36,666 bases of DNA from Psammoneis japonica. Lineage: Eukaryota. The number at the start of each line of letters is the position of its first letter. Position 1 is the first letter of the stretch. A program made the position numbers and the translations under genes. Positions 1 through 36,666 of the stretch are shown one piece after another. The stretch covers positions 632,874 through 669,539 of the forward strand of contig QPGO01000029.1 of assembly GCA_008632985.1 (NCBI GenBank). The letters run 5' to 3'. A model generated the notes under the pieces. The model saw only the letters and a list, made by a program, of their open reading frames with translations, had not been told where the DNA came from and made no database searches.

Positions 1-1035
1 AGGGCAAAACAATTTGAGCTGGAACTGACATCACAGCCAACTGCTTCAGTGTTGACTCACAGTTTTTTCATGTGCTTCTGCTTCAGTGAGTTGCTGAAGG
101 ATTGCAGCCCATCATGGCATGTCAGCCATTGCATGTTTTCTTGTTTCTTGGCAACTGCATTTTGCTTTTCTGAAACTGCTCACTTGTTGTTGAGTGCAAC
201 AAAGTTGCCCTTTGTTGATGCAGCAATTTTTTGTGCAGTTGCATCTTTTCTTGTGCATCTTGTCACTCATGATGCCCTTCTCCATTGCACTCATTTGGAG
301 CTGAAAATCTGGCTTTGAGATGGTGCTCTGCATGCTCTCTCCATCATTGAAACCCTTTTGTCTGCCTGGTTGTCATTGCAGTGCTTTGACTTCATGTGTT
401 GCAAAAAGGGCTCCCTGTGCCAATCTGTTGTGAAATGTTTGCAGCTGTGTCAGGAGGATGCTGGTCCCCTCTTGATGACCTGTCAGCCAAGCTGTTTTGG
501 AAAATCAAAAGACTTTGGAATCTGTTTGTCAAGCATGCACTGAGCATGCAATTGAAACAAAAAAGATTTGAGTGTCCACCATGGCAACTTGTTGGCTAAA
601 TCTGCAACAGAATGGCTGCTGCCATGCTCCTGCCAAACATGGCACCAGAAGTTCTTGTGACAAGAGCTTTGCTTTGCAGAGCCAGAAGAGATGTCAAGCA
701 TGACAAACACAAGCTCTGTCATGTTCATGCATTGCCCCCACTGGTCAAATTCTCCTGCTCCTTTGTGCAAGTTCTGAAAGCATCTTTCTAAATCTGGCTG
801 CACTGACTGAAAGGACTGAGAGTTCAAGAAATGTGCTGTTGTCCTCTAAAAGTTCATTCAACAATGACCCAGCATTTTTCAATGCCTTTTCTTCAAGAGT
901 GCATGCAACTGCTTGGCAAATGATGCTCTTCCTCTGCACACCCCTGCTCTCAATCACTTTTTGTGGCCAACAAGATGACAAAATGGGCATGTCCAACCAC
1001 TGCTGGAACTTTGAGGCAAGAGGCAGTTTTCACAG

Positions 1036-1265
1036 GACAGACAATGTTGCAGTGAAGGACACACTGATGATTGTCAATGATGTGGTGAATTTGCATTTCT
1101 GGCTCAGGTTGAGTTGTGGGTCTTGTGATCACTGTTTGGCTTCTGCACCCAGCCAACATGGCAGTGGTGGTCAATGGCATCAGGAATGTGTTTGCAAGCC
1201 ATGTGGTGAGGTTGGGGTTGGTGAGACCAAACGTGTGCCAGTCCTCAAGCCTTGACACTCCAACA
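1036..1265. repeat. Diverged ~230-bp direct repeat, copy A (copy B at 2691-2934)
   Basis: Shared blocks gacagacaatgttgc, aaggacacactgatgattgt, ttctgcacc, aatgtgtttg, agccatg, gtgtgccagt/atgtgccagt and ctccaaca in the same order. Confidence 0.85.
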
Positions 1266-1654
1266 CAGCAGCCAAAAAGGCACAGCACAAAACTCAAAGA
1301 AGCAGCATCATTCAAAGGAAAGGCTGCCTGGGAAGTCATCGGGGAATCCAAAGGCACAGGCTGGAAAGTCATCAGGAACCCAAAGGGGCAACTCATGTTG
1401 GCAGATTGTGGCAAACAAGCTGGCTGAACAAGGGCAAAGAAACAGTCTCTGGATGGCTTTGCTGTGAGAAAGCTGTCAAGGGTCCTCTGCTGAAAGAGGG
1501 TGCAGCACGGTTGCAATGGGCTGGAACAACATGGGCAAGGATGCAGCTGAGTGTGGAAGCACAAGAGGCTCAAATGCTGAGTCAGCTCATCAGGCAGATG
1601 GTTGCACAGCACCACAAGGAAAATTGGTGAGTGTGTCAGAAGAAAGTTTGGCCC

Positions 1655-1740
1655 AGAGATGCATGCACTGGCATCTCTGAGGCAGGAGAGCATGCCAAGA
1701 GATGCACGGACTGGCATCTCTGAGGCAGGAGAGCATGTCA
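1655..1740. repeat. Tandem duplication, 2 x 43 bp
   Basis: agagatgca..actggcatctctgaggcaggagagcatg.ca starts at both 1655 and 1698. Confidence 0.9.
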
Positions 1741-2690
1741 AAAGAGCTGGAGCATCTGTTGGGAGATGCCACATCAGAGAAGGACAAGGCAACCTGGGGC
1801 AAGCATCAATGCAGTCACCATGTGAAACAGAGTGTGATCCACAAGACACAGAAGGTGAAAGGCATTTAACACAATTGTGGGACAGTGCACAAATGCTGTC
1901 CACCACAAGGTTGAAGGAGTGACAGAGTTGCAAAGGAGTGGGATGTGATGACAGCACTGTTGGAAATTCTCATGCAGATCTTGTTTGGTGCAAATGAGAA
2001 AATGCGCTTGCATGTCCCGGCAGTCAAGGCTTGGAAGCAATTGGTGCTCACTCATCAAGACAAAGGAGAGGCACTTCAAGATCACTGTGATTGGGTTCAC
2101 AAGCATTGTTGAGAGATGGTGGAAACACCCTGCAGCAGAGGAGTCATCTGAAAAGAAGTTGTCAAAAAAGAAGATGGGCTCAGCTTGGACACTCATGACA
2201 CCCCCGGAACAAAGAAAAGAACAAGTTGGTGGTGGCAATGCCAATGGAAGGAGGTGCCAAGCAATGTTGGCACATTTTGAAAGACCCTCATCAGCATTTT
2301 GTGCTGGGGGCCAATGCACTTGTCCCAACTCGGCTGAGGGGGCACTGCAGATGAGTTGGGCACACATGGGGCCAACAAAAAACCCAAGGGCACAAGCCTT
2401 GTGCAAAGCAAGAAGAAGAAGCAGGTCAAATGCCAGACATGCAACAATGTTGAGCACCATGTGAGAAAGAACTGTCCTTTTGCTCAACGGGGATGATGAG
2501 ATGACTCACAGCAGATTTGGATGATGTTGCATGCAGGCCACAGGAGTCAGTGAGCAGTCAAAGCAGTGTTTGATGGCATGGTTCCAAAGTGTCATCCTCT
2601 TGTGCTTGATGCACACAAGGCCAATTAATTGATGACTTGTGCAACAGAGTGTGTTGGAAAATTGGGGGGGGAGGTGGTTTTTGCAGGAAA

Positions 2691-2934
2691 GACAGACAAT
2701 GTTGCTTCCTTGCAGTGAAGCAAGGACACACTGATGATTGTGGCTGACACGGTGAATTCATGTTCACAACTCAGGTCACATTGCAGGTCTCATGCTCACT
2801 TTTTAGTTTCTGCACCTGGTGAACATGTGGCAACAGCAGTTGGTGGCATTGGAAATGTGTTTGTGAGCCATGCGGTGAGTTTGGGGTTAGCGAGACTGAA
2901 CATGTGCCAGTTGGCAAGCCATGATGCTCCAACA
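2691..2934. repeat. Diverged direct repeat, copy B (copy A at 1036-1265)
   Basis: Aligns by eye with 1036-1265. Many differences are TG<->CA swaps. Confidence 0.85.
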
Positions 2935-3420
2935 AACACAGGGCCCAATGAGTCAACTTCTTGCCGTGGTTGTTTTAAACTGGAAACCACTGCAACAAGG
3001 CTGCAGCCCTCTCTCCATTTTTCTTTGTGAGACATGTTTTCAGTCAGCTTGAGGGATGAAATGGTGGTGCAGCACTTGCTTGTGATGTTTTCATGTCATG
3101 CTGCTTTCTCCCAAGGTGAAAGCGCTTTTGTGATCTCTTTTCCAGATCTCTGCTTCAGCAAAACTCTGCTGCAGGTGCACAAAATCAGTCTACAGCACAG
3201 GGTTTTGCCACGTCGCTGCCAGAGCATGAGTTTTTCAAATGAAGACGTGACGGCGCGCGACAGGCTGAGGTCCTCAGCTGTCCAATCATGCCATCTTTGT
3301 TAGTTCGCTCTTCCTCTATTGCAGCACTCTAGAGAGGAACTCTAGAGCTACTACTGCCGTACTCGAGAGCGAGTGGTCTGAAACAGAAGCTTCGTGCTTG
3401 GTGTTAAAATGATTATTAGT

Positions 3421-6399: not shown

Positions 6400-7847
6400 A
6401 AAAGTCTTTGGGACCTGACCTTACTGTATGTTTTGTTCAGAAGGCAAAGCCGACTTGGTCTTGAAACAAGAATCACCACAGGAAAGTCTCACGCATAAAT
6501 TTGCCGTTCGCCATTGTATCTTCGATCTTCGCATCCTGACGAAGCAAGAAGCAAGCGCCGCGAAGGACAGACTGACGGACTCTCAGACGTAACTAGTCTT
6601 GAAACATGATCAAATGAATCGTGACTGAACCTACCGGAGGCAGCTTTTGAAAGTCTCGAATATTCTCTACTCTCTACTCTCTAGCTAGTAGAGGGCCCTA
6701 CTAGTCGAGGGCTCTTTAACTACTTACTTCTATTTAGAAAGTAACAACGAGAGGCAAATTGCAGCACTACTTGAAACTAGCCCCGCACCATGAATGATGG
6801 AACTAAGCCTAGGGCCTAAGCGCCCATGAAGACCACCGTACGTATAATCCGGCTCCGTCTCCGATTGTGGAATCACTTGTCAGTTTCCGAAACGTGGTGG
6901 ATAGAGTTCCGAACAAGAACAAAAAAGTGCGTGGCTCTTGAAAGTCAATTGGAAATATCGTACAAGATGGATGCTTAGAGGCATCGTTAATTGCGTCCTT
7001 ATTCAAGTATTCGAACGCAAAAGCGAGAGGACATTGGCAACACTGCTAGAGAAGCCATCCAGGCGCGCTTTGGGCCAGGTAGTTGACGCGACAAGATATG
7101 TTTCTAACAACAAAACTTGCTCCCACACTGCTTACAACTAACTTCGCTATATAACTTAAGTATAGTTCTGCTTGTTGCGTGCATTAGGTGTTAACCTCCT
7201 TTGTACCGTCGGAAAACGCTGGGACCGAGGTTGAGAACCCGTGCCCCATGTCGAATGTGTAGTCTAATTTGGGGCTGGTGTGGCATGAGAGTGCTGCCTT
7301 GACATTTTCGAAACATCATGACAAGCTTTGGAATATTTCCTGAATCAGGACTAGGGCGGTGGCTATGCCATTGCTATGGGTCCTGTCGTAAATCAATTTG
7401 TTGCTGGGCACTATGACGCGAAACAATGGATTACACAGCTATAACCCAGGCAATACAAGCAGATACAAGGGGGACTGAAGCATTTCGATACCAATGTTTC
7501 GACAACTTGTACAAAACTGAACACATACGCCACCCAACAAGCTCTAAATGTTACAATAAACCGAATGACCTTTCGGAGAATATGAAAACAATATGAAGGA
7601 CCGACCTGATACTTCCAGCTTATCGATTTCACTTTTTGCCAACAGATGCGCGAAAAGAAAAAAAGAGAGGGAGTTCTGGAGTGCGACAATTCCATTGGCC
7701 ACTTCGCCACCCCGTAATCGCAAGCAATGCCTGCGAAAGAACGAGACAAAAAAGTAGCCGCCAGAAGAGTTTACAGAAAAAGCCGAAGCCTAATCCATAG
7801 ACACAACATGCCGTACCACAACTAGTCTCCCCCTCTGTGAGATCTCC

Positions 7848-12973: not shown

Positions 12974-13704
12974 TGCTCGGATGTTCACGTTTAGACCAAC
13001 TGCGCAGCCTAGATTGAGTCAAAGCATTTTTATTTCAAATTTGTTGAAACCAAAGGTTTGGGTAGAGCATACAGCAAAGGCACAGGTTGGTGCTCTCCTG
13101 GTTTTGATTGAGACAGTTTGCTCCAAGAGACTTCCTCCTGAAAAGCCGCTTGCTGAAACTCTAGCAACACACCTTTGAAATCCAACAGAATGTGAGAAAG
13201 AGAAGCAGGGACAAGATAAAAACACTGACAGAGCTCAAAAATCTGATCTTGAACAAAGTGCTGCTCTCTGGGAATGTCGCGCTTGTTGTTCATGACAGAC
13301 GGCAGGGTTGGAAAACCAAGCAAGGAGGTGGCACTGGGGCAGAGCAGTGTCAGATGGAGAATTCACAATTTGTGGCACATGCATGCCAGAGTCAGCTGCT
13401 GCTGGAAGCAGGTTGCTGCCAGCTGCTTCTTGTCAATTTTGTGGAGGTTGTCACACGCCACTTTCTCAATCAAATGGCACAGGCAGGCAAAGTGTTGCGC
13501 CACATGTCACCTGCCTTGGCACCGCTGTTTTTTTTTTGCTGCTCTCAGCCCCTCCAGACTGCATGGCTGGCCTCTCTTTTTCATCATCACAGGCTTTAGA
13601 AACAAGTTTTTGTGCTCCTCCCACTGGCCACAACTTTCTTTTTGCTGTCATGTCGGCGCTCTCAGGCACAGTCAGTCTCATCTTGTCTTTTTTGTGTGTG
13701 GTCG

Positions 13705-13728
13705 TCTCTCTCTCTCTCTCTCTCTCTC
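13705..13728. repeat. (TC)12 microsatellite
   Basis: Direct reading. Confidence 0.95.
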
Positions 13729-14633
13729 TGTGCACTTGACAATTGCTGGGGACTCATCGCTGGGGAGGGCACGTGGCTGGAGGGAGGCATTTGGCTTCCT
13801 GGGCTGGCGCAACATCTTTTGCAATGCATTTGCTGGCAGAAGCTTGTTTGCATGATCAAGGCTGGTGATGGGTTGCATGGTTGGCATCTCTTTCTCATCA
13901 TTGCAGGCTTTGGAAACCTGCTTTCATCTCTTCCCCCCACTGGGTGCTGTGCTCTTTTTCTTGGTGGCGCCGTGTCATTCTCCCACTTGGGCTGGGATCT
14001 CCATCAGGTTGTGAGCCACACTTGTGCTTGGTGCAAGTGGGGCCCCTCTGCTGACCACCAACACTCTGAAAACACTCTTTGACTGCCTCATTGACAGCAA
14101 CAAAGACCGTTTTTTGCACACTCTTTCTCGTTTTTGTGGCCGCAACATCTCTGCCACAAGCCGGCAAATCTTGCGCCATCGTTGTTTGCATCCGCTGCTG
14201 TTGCTGCAGCTCTTGGCATCAACTCCACATGCGTGCTTTTGTGCATGCAAGTGCCGACACCAACAGCCCCATGTGCGCCACGGCTCACAGACCACTGCAT
14301 GACCATGGCACCGGCGAACAGCACCCGTTCCAAAACGGCAGCATCTTGGCGGGAACGCACATCATCTCTTCAAGCAGCCACAAGGCAGCAGCAATGATGC
14401 ACCACCACACTGTTCACTGGCAGAACAGTGCTCCCATTCTCAATGGGCCCGCCATTCTCCTGGTGTGTTGGGGTGTCAGTGGCGCCACATCGCTCCTGCT
14501 TGGGTTGGAGTCTCTGCCACTTTTTGCTTTTTGCCGCTGTGCAGTTGCTTGCTTCTCTTCTTGTGTTCTTGTCTGAGGACTCTGGCACACATTTTGTTGA
14601 CAACAGCAAAAGAAAAAAGATCACAAAAACAGC

Positions 14634-14640
14634 AAAAAAA
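14634..14640 (-). terminator. RNA polymerase III terminator (T7) of tRNA-Leu
   Basis: Seven T on the minus strand, 3 nt after the discriminator base. Confidence 0.8.
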
Positions 14641-14643
14641 GGT

Positions 14644-14822
14644 TGACATCGGCAGGATTTGAACCTGCGCCAACGAAGACTGCAGCCTAAATGCAGCGCC
14701 TGATCGAAATTAAGGGGCGGATGATTTGTGAGCGGATGTGAACGAGTGGTCTGGTGCGTATGTAATTAGTGGTCGTTCGGTAAGGTGATGTCACTGACCT
14801 TAGACCACTCGGCCACGATGTC
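14644..14822 (-). tRNA. trnL-UAG: tRNA-Leu(UAG); exons 14822-14799 and 14699-14644, split in the D-arm by a 99-nt insertion
   Basis: Joined exons give GACATCG TG GCCG AGTGGTCTA AGGC G CTGCA TTTAGGC TGCAG TCTTCGTTGGC GCAGG TTCAAAT CCTGC CGATGTC A (80 nt). Perfect 7-bp acceptor, 5-bp anticodon and 5-bp T stems. A box TGGCCGAGTGG, B box GGTTCAAATCC, anticodon TAG at 14689-14687, discriminator A. Confidence 0.93.
14700..14798 (-). other. 99-nt GT-AG intron-like insertion in the tRNA-Leu D-arm
   Basis: AAG|GTCAGT 5' end, GCTCAC branch-like motif about 30 nt before the 3' end, TTTCGATCAG|G 3' end. Removal restores the D-stem exactly. Confidence 0.8.
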
Positions 14823-32814: not shown

Positions 32815-33788
32815 TTAGCTGGTGCTGTGACAGGCGGTCCTTGCCATTAACTTATGAGAAGCGAGCAGAGCAACTGGGACAAGATCAGGGTCGTAATCAT
32901 TCTCACACACATCGGAAATGGTAACATCTTTACTGGGACTGACAATGCCCGTTCGGCTGGGCCATACATATTTCACGATTGTATACAAGAGACCCGCTAC
33001 GTAAATTCCCACTGGAACGAAACGCCGTGGCGATGCATGTCGCCCCATCCTCATCCGTAGAATGCCCATTCTGGCCGGAGACCAAACGGCAACCAATAGC
33101 GGGATTATGATCCAGTAACGTTTCGACATGGGCTTGATCTTCAACGCAACCGCGACCATTCCGGTCAGAGTGCCAAGAGCGACAAAAATGGATGTCAAGA
33201 ACAAGTAAGGCAGACGGTTCTCTTCTCGAGCCTTTTGTATGGTCCACGGCCACAGGGGCAAAATAAGGATCAAGGACACAGCCAAATATCGTCGATGCTT
33301 GATCATCTCTTTTCTGATCCTATTTGTCTCGATCTTGGCATGACTTATCTCGACTCCTGACTTTGGATAGCCCGGAAGAACAGCCAAGTTGACAGATTCG
33401 ATGGCCCAGCCTTCGGTTCGTAAGTTCTCGTGGTGGTGGTTTCTTTTGTAATCTCCTTGATGCCCACACAATTCTCTTTCAACCTGTATCGAAGCTGCCC
33501 CTCTATTTGAAACAAGCCATCTTGATTAGTGCTGTTGCCGGAGAACACAATCTTTCCATTGACCGGGACGCCGCGTTTCAGAAGATCATCATACTGGCAC
33601 AGCTCCGTATTCCTTAACCACAAGTGAATCGAATTGGAGAATCCTACCACAGAGCAACAGACTACCAAACTCATTGCCACGACAAAGGCGCTGACGTGCT
33701 CTCTGCTCTGTACAAGGCTAAATGCGGAGTAGACCTGGTAGACGAGGAAGATTCCACTCAGTAACTTCTTGCTCTTTGCGGAATTCAT
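32815..33788 (-). CDS. Hypothetical multi-pass membrane protein; frameshift in ~33420-33470
   Basis: Two overlapping same-strand ORFs with several hydrophobic segments, plus YDDLLKRGVPVNGKIV and LAVLPGYPKSG motifs. Confidence 0.55.
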
Positions 33789-33949
33789 TGCCACGTAGAA
33801 GTATTTTTTCTTGTCTCTGCACGTTATTGACGATGGTAAAGCAATGTTCGGTTCATACGAGCATTCGACGAAGTTGCGATAAAATAATGAGAACTGAAAA
33901 CGCGGGACTGTTCCTCAAAAAATGATGTCATTGCACATCGAAGAATCAT

Positions 33950-34940
33950 CAAGAATCAATCATCACACATCGCACTTTTCTACTGCATCCTCGACTCGTG
34001 CTCCGTGGGACTGACTTCGTCACGGGACTCACGACTGAAAAAACTTGCCTCCGACACTGTCTCCGCTTGTGAGGCCCCAACTTCATAATGTGTTCACCAT
34101 GGCCAACTAATGCACACTTCTCTTTCATTATTTTCACTTTCACCATGTTTTTCATTTCTAACTGAGTCCACTTCTGCATGTTCAACAATCCATCTGTTTT
34201 TTGTTTGCTTTTTGCCACTCTGCTCTGCACTGTCCTCCCCGCTCCAAATGGCGTTGCTCTTCCAAAATGAATGCTTTCCTTCAAATGGCTTCTTTTCATC
34301 AGTCATGCTTGGCACTGCAACTGGTTGCACTGGTGTGTCACTCTCATTCTTTGCACTTGCACCAGCTCCAACTTGAACATGTGCCTCGCTCACAACATTC
34401 CTCGTCGTCAGCTTCGTCTGCAGTCGGCACCCAACGTGCTTGCTGTCCTTTTTTCAATTTGCAGAGCCACACATTTCAACTTCCATTCTGACAACACAAC
34501 TTCTCCTGGACAATGCCTTGCCCTTGCTTTCAGTGTCTCAATGTTCAACTCTCCAATTTTTGCAGCTTCAGCGGCTTTGCCACTCGACTCTGTGTTGTCA
34601 TTGGCGCGCTTGTGGAATCCTTTTCTGCATTCAAAGAAGTTTCTCCAATGGTCAATGTGAACAATTTCATTGGCACCTTGCACATGTGCCCTCTCTTTTC
34701 TTTTGATTTGTTTGTGTTCAAAGTTTTGTCATTTGGTGGCTCTTTTTCACTTTCCACTGGCTTGATTTTTTTGGCGCCACTTCCCAGCTTTGTTTTGCAG
34801 CTTGTTCTTTCAAGCTCATGCTCTCCCATGGGATCAGACTCACTCAAGTTCACATTGCATGTTGAGTCATTTGCACATCATCCACCTCTCCTTTGCTGAC
34901 AAGTGGATGATGCTCATGTCAGAATGCCTGGTTGGTGCAC
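33950..34940. repeat. TpA-depleted degenerate sequence of unidentified origin adjoining the copia relic
   Basis: Few TA dinucleotides, CG partly retained, Tyr-free ORFs. Confidence 0.55.
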
Positions 34941-34949
34941 ACAATGAAA

Positions 34950-35830
34950 TGTGTTCTTCGTGTTGACACAATGAGTCGCAGTGACAAACTTGCCAAGTCC
35001 CAAGGGGCTCAGGTGCATCCTTGGGCAGCATCTCTTCTGCATTGCCACACACCATGTGTGCCCATTGATGCACTGGCTTGGGAAGGTCTGGAACAGACCC
35101 ATTGATTGGGGCATCGGTGAGATGTCTGTCGGCCACTGGTCACGCCTTCTTGTGTCAACCATCATGTTGCACATCACACACAAGGTGCGCTTGAATCTTC
35201 TTGTGTCCCACTTGGGGTGTCAATTCCTTGTGGTGTCCACAGTCACAGCGCAAGAAAGAAGACATCACACTCTCAAAAATGGGTCATGTTAAGATGGGTT
35301 GCATGTTCCCATTTGTGGTTGCCGCTGTGCTTGTCAAGGGTCATGGCATGCCTGTGCAGCCCCATGGAACTTCACACCCATGCTTGCAACAAGGCACGCA
35401 GTGTGGAAGGAGCGAAGCTTGGCCTGGTTCCTCTGGAAATGGCGCAAAAATGCTTCCAGCCTTTGGCCATTCTCACGTGCACAGATGGTGCAAGTGATGG
35501 GGTCATCATCCTTGATGATGATGGCAAGTGGCTCAGATGCTGTCTCCCACTTTTCCACCACTTGAGCATGACATTGCAGCTCCAACCTTTCCAAGAGAGA
35601 TTGTGGGGCTTCTTCAAAATGGTCCTTTGTATGATGTGGTGCATTGTCTTTGTTGTCTTGCTCTGTGTGATGGATGATCCCATTGCAGGCAAGGACTTCT
35701 TTGCATTTGTCATTGTTGACCAAGCAAATAAACTTGGTGAGTTTGGGGTTGCCACCAATCTCCCAGTCGTGGTCCTCAACAACTGCCTTGACAATGCGGG
35801 CTCTTCAGCAACGGCCCACTTGGACAGCAA
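34950..35830 (-). mobile_element. Decayed, internally deleted Ty1/copia (CoDi-like) retrotransposon pol fragment
   Basis: Across frames: RARIVKAVVEDHD...KFICLVNNDKCKEVLACN, SCNVML, SEPLAII..DDPITCTICAREN, NQAKLRSFHTA, CKHGCEVP, HLVCDVQHDG, VADRHLTDAP (start of RT), jumping straight to WAHMVCGNAEEMLPKDAPEPLG and GKFVTATHCV (RT/RNase H junction). Motifs recalled from diatom copia pol. No LTR seen. Confidence 0.85.
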
Positions 35831-35902
35831 TCAGCAAGACATAAAAATAAATGCCGATAGCTACAATAGCAGCGCGCTCACGGGATGATGCTGAAAACAT
35901 AG

Positions 35903-36666
35903 ATGAGCAATGAAACAAGCATGGGCAAAATCTACAAGAAGCGTTTTCGCCCCGACTTGTCAGAGTCTCACGCCTTTCTGGATGTAGCTGCTTCCATATC
36001 AGTGTCGACCTTTGGTGCAAGGCGTTTGCCGGAAATCAAAGGATTATGTGCTGCAGCAAAAGAGCAGCAGCAGCGGCAGCACAAGCGTGTCACAGACGAG
36101 GAATTCAAGAGTCGAGGCGGAAAATCCAACAGTAGGCACTTGAGACGACGTGCTACGAGTTACTTATCTCGCAGGAGGCATCGATATCCAAGAGCTACCA
36201 AACAGAAAGCGCAAGCGGAAAAAGTACAAAGCCTTCGTCTCGTCGGTCTCGTCGAAAGAGAGCAGCGCTTAGTCGCAACAGGACGAAGTAGGGAACCAGA
36301 CTAACACTTTCCGGTTCGTTGGCTACCCACTCACTTGTGGCATGCCAAGCGATTTTATATGAAAACCCTATGGGATGGAAAGTACCAGTCGCCCACACCA
36401 ACCGCGACCACGCGCCGCATTGCGCCTGGCTCATGAGCAAGCCTTGCTTCAGGACGTTACCTGGATGACACAAACTGTCATAGTTTCGTCTTTACAACTC
36501 GAACCGCTTTGGTGTCTTTGCATAAGATATGTCCAAGTCTTTTGCCTGCAGCACCCGGTTCGGTGTTGTCTGGCAATACTATTGGGGAAGGAGTTGTGCA
36601 CGAACCGGGTCAGTTTCCTCCTTGGCGCAATTTGGCCAGCTTCTTGGTGGATCACAGCTACTAGCA
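35903..36666 (+). CDS. POP1: RNase P/MRP subunit Pop1, 5' part with several indels; end not resolved in the window
   Basis: FGARRLPEI, RHLRRRATS and, in another frame, WLPTHLWHAKRFYM are the Pop1 N-terminal R and W motifs. Confidence 0.88.

Follow-up and report, generated by a model that had tools for sequence, protein, structure and literature searches.

Why does a decayed Copia retrotransposon in the diatom Psammoneis japonica carry cysteine or histidine at sites where tyrosine would be expected, and in which direction and at what time did its sequence change? The question arises at positions 34950-35830 of a 36,666-nucleotide stretch of the 91-Mb genome (G000:C29:632874-669539), which was studied as a whole and is referred to here as the window. 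A sequence-only reading of this segment had proposed that TA dinucleotides became TG or CA after the element had inserted. Comparison with real sequences upholds this polarity, with the firm proof coming from a second allele of the locus and from younger elements. We are very confident that chromosomal mobile DNA in this genome undergoes a strand-symmetric, TpA-specific, single-hit change of A:T to G:C after insertion. The enzyme responsible is proposed with considerably less assurance.

Depletion of TA in a Copia relic

The element is an ordinary decayed Copia: a pol relic on the minus strand at 34901-35804, frameshifted and with several small deletions. Its parts are described relative to P0001 and P0002, two outside proteins bearing the Copia-type reverse transcriptase (RT) domain RVT_2, and to L075, a sister element about 73% identical to the relic.

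35087-35804, minus strand: part of Copia pol that spans the integrase-RT linker and the beginning of RT (tblastn of P0001/P0002, E 1e-18 to 1e-10), equivalent to L075 5384-6127.
34901-35098, minus strand: part of Copia pol beyond the deletion, running from the RT-RNase H linker into the beginning of RNase H, with the peptides WAHMVCGNAEE and THCVNT (tblastn of P0002, E 2e-5), equivalent to L075 6939-7123.
35087-35098, minus strand: junction of a deletion of about 820 nt, whose letters fit both sides (microhomology); the junction is identical in the second allele, L002.

Most of RT is thus gone, as had been suggested for a point near 35090. The missing part corresponds to L075 6128-6945 and includes the YVDD motif at 6449. 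RVT_2 is recognised in L075 itself (E 1e-28) and the relic matches P0001 and P0002 across the start of RT, while a Pfam scan of the relic's own 155-aa frame returned no match. Neither L075 nor P0001 gave an integrase match in Pfam at E<=0.01; their translations contain motifs upstream of RT that we take to be integrase-like. Long terminal repeats (LTRs) were looked for at the relic and not found. Among the sister elements, 18 of 20 have LTRs, of about 277 bp and with TG...CA ends, together with 5-bp target duplications. No TA-intact close copy of the relic's subfamily was found in G000: among the best-scored candidates, second allele aside, DNA identity was 66-68% over the 731-nt query, reaching 74% in shorter pieces and 58% at the protein level.

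Positions 34950-35830 contain three TA dinucleotides, where composition predicts 52.6 and the genic ratio of the window (0.56) predicts 29.5 (P 8e-10). They also contain 15 CG against 56.7 expected (P 5e-11). Alignment to L075 (819 nt, 73% identity) shows that substitutions are strongly enriched at TA: none of the 17 TA of L075 is kept, 11 having TG, two CA and four another dinucleotide opposite them, against 418 of 720 other non-CG steps kept (P 5e-7 for the contrast). CG is kept at 6 of 65 sites. The relic's own three TA, at 35290, 35630 and 35729, look newly made rather than spared, because L075 has CG (twice) or CA (once) there.

The seven peptides in which the changes had been noticed all lie on the minus strand within this segment, spread over three frames.

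35682-35708, minus strand, KCKEVLACN: two TGC codons; sister copies have TAC in 13/19 and 2/19.
35570-35581, minus strand, SCNV: TGC; sister copies TAC in 19/19.
35469-35486, minus strand, ICAREN: TGT; sister copies TAT in 19/19, and Tyr in 118/119 outside homologues with a residue there.
35365-35388, minus strand, CKHGCEVP: TGC, CAT and TGT; sister copies segregate TAY, TGY and CAY (Y, pyrimidine) at all three.
35170-35187, minus strand, HLVCDV: TGT; sister copies TAC 11, TGC 3, TTC 3 and CAC 2 of 19.
35032-35064, minus strand, WAHMVCGNAEE: TGT at the Tyr site; ATG against ACG in the second allele; GCA against GTA in one sister family.
34959-34976, minus strand, THCVNT: TGT; sister copies TAC in 11/19.

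The sister set comprised 20 full-length candidates, 18 from the RVT_2 hit list and two from a protein search, and leans towards less mutated copies; 19 entered the codon comparison (L092 was left out). At the ten flagged Tyr positions the relic reads TGY (nine) or CAT (one), and at each of them at least one sister copy retains TAY. In motif order, TAY was counted in 13, 2, 19, 19, 12, 1, 4, 11, 9 and 11 of 19 copies, mostly alongside TGY and CAY. The less mutated relatives therefore carry Tyr, and the proposed Tyr to Cys/His replacements are borne out. So is Thr to Met, the ATG of the window being ACG in the second allele. The proposed Val to Ala change in GNAEE is borne out only in part: all four aligning copies of one sister family have GTA, and GCA is found in 19/19 of the other. 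Alignments of the second sister family at WAHMVCGNAEE and THCVNT were unreliable in the first comparison; WAHMVCGNAEE was realigned, with ten loci tried for GNAEE, nine of them from the GTA family, and four aligning there. Val is the commonest residue at this site in outside homologues (42, against 10 Ala). One further Tyr, assumed just before the Thr in W.YTVYG, finds no support, as sister copies have CAT there in 19/19. More broadly, in 116 of 120 outside homologues Cys or His occupies less than 10% of 24 conserved Tyr columns.

Two alleles of one deleted element

Short-read contigs from X1 show no differing letter from the window over 34865-35041, 35064-35473 and 35456-36031, at about 31x, which excludes assembly error at the relic. 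X1 is the only run containing the stretch and may be the assembly's own sample, and hence represents no independent isolate; run X2 covered the flank alone and X3 none of the stretch. The variants of L002 (on C302) are found on a second X1 contig, at 31.5x. This locus shares its flanks and its RT junction with the window; its upstream deletion differs, L075 5054 being joined to 5692. A mis-assembly of L002 was considered; the contig at 31.5x backs the middle of the locus. L002 may be the second allele or a segmental duplicate, the flanks being shared either way. Near window position 35617 it has an N, past which it agrees with the haplotype of the window, so that swaps were counted only on 34700-35507.

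Over 790 aligned nucleotides, L002 and the window differ by 82 substitutions, including 17 CA/TG swaps where about 1.2 would arise by chance; other adjacent double transitions number two. A further swap, at the deletion junction, falls inside a Tyr codon whichever side it is assigned to by comparison with P0001 and P0002. In a CA/TG swap a single TA or CG has been resolved oppositely in each lineage; mutation therefore continued at this locus after RT had been lost. The relic thereby serves as a test case, in which two alleles of an already RT-deleted element were resolved differently in place.

Polarity and timing of the change in younger elements

Polarity is clearest in L031 and L057, elements that are 90% identical and have TA observed-to-expected (o/e) ratios of 0.76 and 0.07, with L033 as outgroup. 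At the 92 TA common to L031 and L033, L057 keeps 13 and has TG at 40, CA at 35, CG at two and another dinucleotide at two; it keeps 86 of 104 CG in the same comparison. In L057, A became G at 34 of 75 sites after T and at 8 of 572 after other bases, and the opposite-strand change occurred at 33 of 77 sites in TA context and 11 of 324 otherwise. The L031 branch shows 25 apparent TA gains (CA>TA 17, TG>TA 8), which we read as parallel TA loss in L057 and L033.

LTR pairs, compared in 18 elements with full pairs (L086 and L092 were without), point to change after insertion. Their 178 differences comprise 58 TA/TG, 64 TA/CA (122 together), 23 CA/TG, 21 involving CG and 12 others. Across 229 TA sites in these elements 2068 of 4091 cells were converted (51%) and the double product CG appeared in 3 of 4091; TA, TG and CA coexist at 143 of the 229 sites. 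CG cells changed at 4.2% over a background of 0.9% in the young family (L076 left out of the background). The accompanying CG to TG/CA changes of the sequence-only reading are thus real, but belong to a separate and slower process than TA loss. TA at the other codon positions was converted at 0.56 and 0.48, against 0.59 in Tyr codons; this similarity argues that selection did not filter the changes. YVDD was retained in 19 of the 20 fetched elements, which is not evidence of selection, since 18 of them were selected via RVT_2 hits.

DNA transposons are also affected. Ten of 16 piggyBac-type matches (16 loci, some overlapping) have TA o/e under 0.2, and L113 compared with L123 shows 49 TA lost and two the other way. 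An RNA step is therefore not needed.

The process follows rules of its own. Read on the strand that carries the altered A, conversion is 0.32-0.46 when C or T follows TA and 0.13-0.31 for TAA and TAG. Over the element's initial 600 nt it is 0.13-0.33, compared with mostly 0.4-0.9 in the body. Where paired LTRs differ, the copy that keeps TA is the 5' one in 103 cases and the 3' one in 19. Chromatin state or promoter occupancy would fit this sparing better than homology pairing, because both LTRs are equally repeated. Body conversion ranges from 22 to 72% among the 18 copies, a spread that age differences could also yield. L049 (G000:C388:8598-12281), which belongs to a different, younger Copia family, carries 22 TA changes seen in no other copy. 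Of these, 20 fall within columns 1-1100 of an alignment of about 3370, and TA-poor DNA adjoins the element; this patch possibly reflects spreading from a neighbouring domain. The effect is confined to mobile DNA in the window and fetched loci: Copia and piggyBac-type copies are affected, and the TA-poor islands of the window have TA o/e of 0.04-0.08 against 0.56-0.63 in its gene-rich stretches.

At LTR positions 54, 83, 108 and 222 (L073-L091), TA survives in 15-18 of the 18 copies, 5' and 3' LTR alike, with neighbours mostly converted; context or protein binding may protect these sites.

Proposed mechanism and rival explanations

The history of the relic is best explained as follows. A Copia element inserted and lost most of RT through the microhomology-bounded deletion. 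Its sequence was then altered by a host process which, as the comparisons show, changes A:T to G:C only within the palindrome TpA, on one strand per site, giving TG or CA; it reaches retrotransposons and DNA transposons alike, spares adjacent genes and in part the 5' LTR and leader, and saturates in old copies. The agent could be an ADAT2/TadA-like enzyme of tRNA-deaminase type that is recruited to silenced transposon chromatin and deaminates A. Hypoxanthine would be copied as G at replication, and destruction of the TpA context would block a second hit. A slower CpG decay, probably caused by deamination of 5-methylcytosine, adds more TG and CA, and Tyr codons are lost permanently. That the mechanism is a host adenine deaminase with silenced chromosomal DNA as its substrate we regard as an even proposition, the enzyme itself being inferred. 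Candidates in G000 are an ADAT2 gene (C26), a TadA-like gene (C38) and two editase-domain genes, with several C5 methyltransferase matches besides; no specialised mutator gene was recognised among the deaminase matches of this genome.

Several observations weigh against this account, in whole or in part. The relic alone is a weak witness of direction, since identity to even the closest relatives is only about 73%. Its sense-strand outcome is skewed (11 TG to 2 CA, a small sample), which the TAY context of Tyr codons could explain. Twelve of the allele swaps could be located on the sister family: one falls at a TA site, one at a CG site and ten were left unassigned, so that part of the local swaps may be CpG decay. 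The younger Copia family of L049 (ten copies, 98-99% identical, L044 dropped as a duplicate locus) is nearly untouched in most copies, the patch in L049 excepted. The deaminase genes resemble an ordinary tRNA-editing set, with chromatin- and DNA-binding domains absent in the scanned frames. Aligned ADAT2/Tad2 structures, presumably mammalian, yeast and trypanosomal, share an Asn; the diatom's ADAT2 homologue (L098) has it too, and it is the residue noted in the Bigelowiella natans preprint discussed below, so that it does not discriminate. Finally, A>G after T and T>C before A are indistinguishable from sequence.

This last point leaves room for a lesion on T, in which the TpA thymine in silenced DNA would carry a modification, such as oxidation, that lets it mispair with G. 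Such a lesion would give identical TG and CA products on both strands, and thymine modification exists in other protists. We nevertheless hold it to be doubtful, as positive evidence is absent: a Tet/JBP search matched nothing, though its controls were equally silent and the search is therefore uninformative. Error-prone repair synthesis in methylated repeats, by a polymerase-eta-like enzyme that miscopies A:T at TA, would suit the patchy conversion of L049 and the presence of C5 methyltransferase genes. Polymerase eta also mutates AA, however, and here A became G at 4 of 219 sites after A against 34 of 75 after T, with 0-0.8% after A in the young family; transversions are rare as well, which makes this explanation unlikely.

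The remaining alternatives fare worse. Editing of element RNA from A to I by an ADAR-type enzyme, fixed by reverse transcription before insertion, draws on a 5' T preference matching that of ADAR (Mettrop et al., bioRxiv 10.64898/2026.01.13.699255) and on the two editase-domain genes in the genome. It is very improbable given that both strands are hit near-equally in one copy (40 TG, 35 CA), LTRs within one element differ at TA, DNA transposons are affected, and the alleles of the RT-deleted relic diverged in place. Scarcely more credible is a reversed polarity, in which the element was originally TA-poor and TA arose later in the copies now rich in it. The relatives nearest to the relic are indeed TA-poor too, and the L031 branch has its CA>TA and TG>TA changes, but Tyr columns are conserved in 116/120 outside homologues, and at the 143 three-state sites TG and CA are each one step from TA, which alone links both. 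A sequencing or assembly artefact, such as miscalled modified bases, would gain something from the possibility that the sole run covering the stretch is the assembly's sample. It is extremely unlikely, because X1 contigs match the window with the second allele at equal depth, copies differ site by site, and three outside proteins have the same pattern. A host deaminase acting on TpA in chromosomal DNA thus remains our preferred explanation.

Other genes touching on these chemistries were seen in G000. The two editase-domain (PF02137) genes are separate (L102-L105, G000:C40 and C79), and one of them may be ADAT1. In a single open frame at L097:313-1785 (G000:C79), a deaminase domain is fused to a 2OG-Fe(II) dioxygenase (DIOX_N, 2OG-FeII_Oxy; 2OG, 2-oxoglutarate), a combination probably of purine or nucleoside metabolism. 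C5 DNA methyltransferase gave 27 matches (L127-L134). Several of these contain stops and form clusters on C297 and C10, and mobile elements may carry some of them.

Relation to known systems and significance

Repeat-induced point mutation (RIP) of ascomycete fungi resembles the diatom process in that dinucleotide-specific transitions permanently disable transposon copies in the chromosome. RIP acts mostly at CpA and creates TpA. It converts C:G to T:A (PMC2621366), the opposite of the diatom change, in which A:T becomes G:C and TpA is removed; moreover, equally repeated LTRs are treated unequally here (103 vs 19). Decay of CpG by deamination of 5-methylcytosine yields the same TG and CA products and would explain the relic's CG loss, but cannot remove TA and is about twelve times less advanced in young copies (4.2% vs 51%). 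ADAT2/ADAT3, TadA and ADAR share with the diatom process a preference for 5' U or T and an A that is read as G after deamination. Their native substrates are RNA, whereas the diatom change occurs in chromosomal DNA on both strands; their reported activity on DNA is confined to special cases cited in the preprint (bioRxiv 10.64898/2026.01.13.699255).

The closest precedent comes from the same preprint. In accumulation lines of B. natans, 230 of the 231 mutations that it reports for two inserted viral sequences were A:T to G:C at TpA, with ADAT2 proposed as the enzyme (Mettrop et al.). Both systems change TpA to TpG or CpA on both strands of foreign or mobile DNA only, integrated nucleocytoplasmic large DNA virus (NCLDV) and virophage DNA in B. 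natans, and spare genes. An ADAT2 homologue is present in both, and unevenness appears between lines there and between copies here. B. natans is a rhizarian with two viral inserts in which the rate was measured, at about 1000 times background, and depletion in the NCLDV insert is mild (rho 0.45). Transposons are only hinted at, from TpA-poor coding sequences, and the words 'diatom', 'stramenopile' and 'LTR' do not occur in the preprint's text. The diatom differs in its Copia and piggyBac-type targets, near-total erasure (o/e 0.05), TAY preference and partial sparing of the 5' LTR. There is thus a known precedent in one distant alga; what is new here is the reach into ordinary diatom transposons, the saturation, and context and position rules of the process's own.

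Diatom Ty1/copia elements of the CoDi groups (Maumus et al., PMC2806351) have a Copia-type pol like that of the relic, from which LTRs and most of RT are missing. One homologue is labelled Fistulifera solaris. In the accessible text of that paper and of 10.1101/2025.10.24.684338, the terms TpA, dinucleotide, hypermut and RIP do not occur, and the literature searched, mostly abstracts with few subscription papers and including PMC9998398, yielded no diatom report of TpA hypermutation. Three of 120 outside proteins show Tyr to Cys/His replacement with Phe columns largely intact: P0072 (8/15 Tyr columns), P0052 (11/24) and P0111 (6/24). P0072 is probably from another organism, because its best match in G000 is 66%, and the three together suggest the same process in other organisms. 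We tentatively propose, as a possibility somewhat short of even, that diatoms, and perhaps eukaryotes of the stramenopile-alveolate-rhizarian group widely, possess a dedicated genome-defence mutator shared with chlorarachniophytes. This would be a chromatin-guided adenine deaminase at TpA that prefers TAY, keeps off element promoters and brings about complete TpA loss in all transposon classes.

Targeted mutation of transposons is known as C to T chemistry (RIP, APOBEC), and the diatom TpA process is one of A:T to G:C. If enzymatic, it would be a natural editor of DNA adenine; if the proposal as a whole is true, a natural DNA adenine base editor would stand as the A:T to G:C counterpart of RIP. 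Under TpA loss, LTR divergence overstates insertion age, dead copies resemble long open frames because TAA and TAG stops are lost, and the replacement of Tyr by Cys or His conceals elements from homology searches.

Genomic context of the relic

Three islands of the window, at about 1-3190, 13220-14680 and 34160-35840, are TA-poor, low in CG and high in TG and CA. Its gene-rich stretches have CG o/e of about 1.06, and an FKBP gene is present in the flank. Diatoms account for nearly all of this gene's homologues that carry an organism name, a minority of the 120 matches listed; one is labelled Alexandrium.

34160-35840: TA- and CG-poor island containing the relic; TA is absent from 34160-35289.
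34160-34900: TA-free part of the island beside the relic, examined by genome search and comparison with L075.
34745-36136: haplotype-divergent tract; each haplotype is at about 31x and the shared flanks at 57-71x; L002 (G000:C302) is a partial assembly of the second.

In four frames of islands 1-3190 (TA o/e 0.04) and 13220-14680 (0.08), both also CG-poor, a Pfam scan gave no match. A search of G000 with 34160-34900 returned two candidates, itself and the locus's second assembly, and L075 was unmatched; this part is probably further decayed mobile DNA. Short-read contigs show a single haplotype at 64-71x over 33500-34744 and then two at about 31x each, several percent apart even in unique flank. 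The depth change at 34744/34745 looks like a loss-of-heterozygosity boundary.
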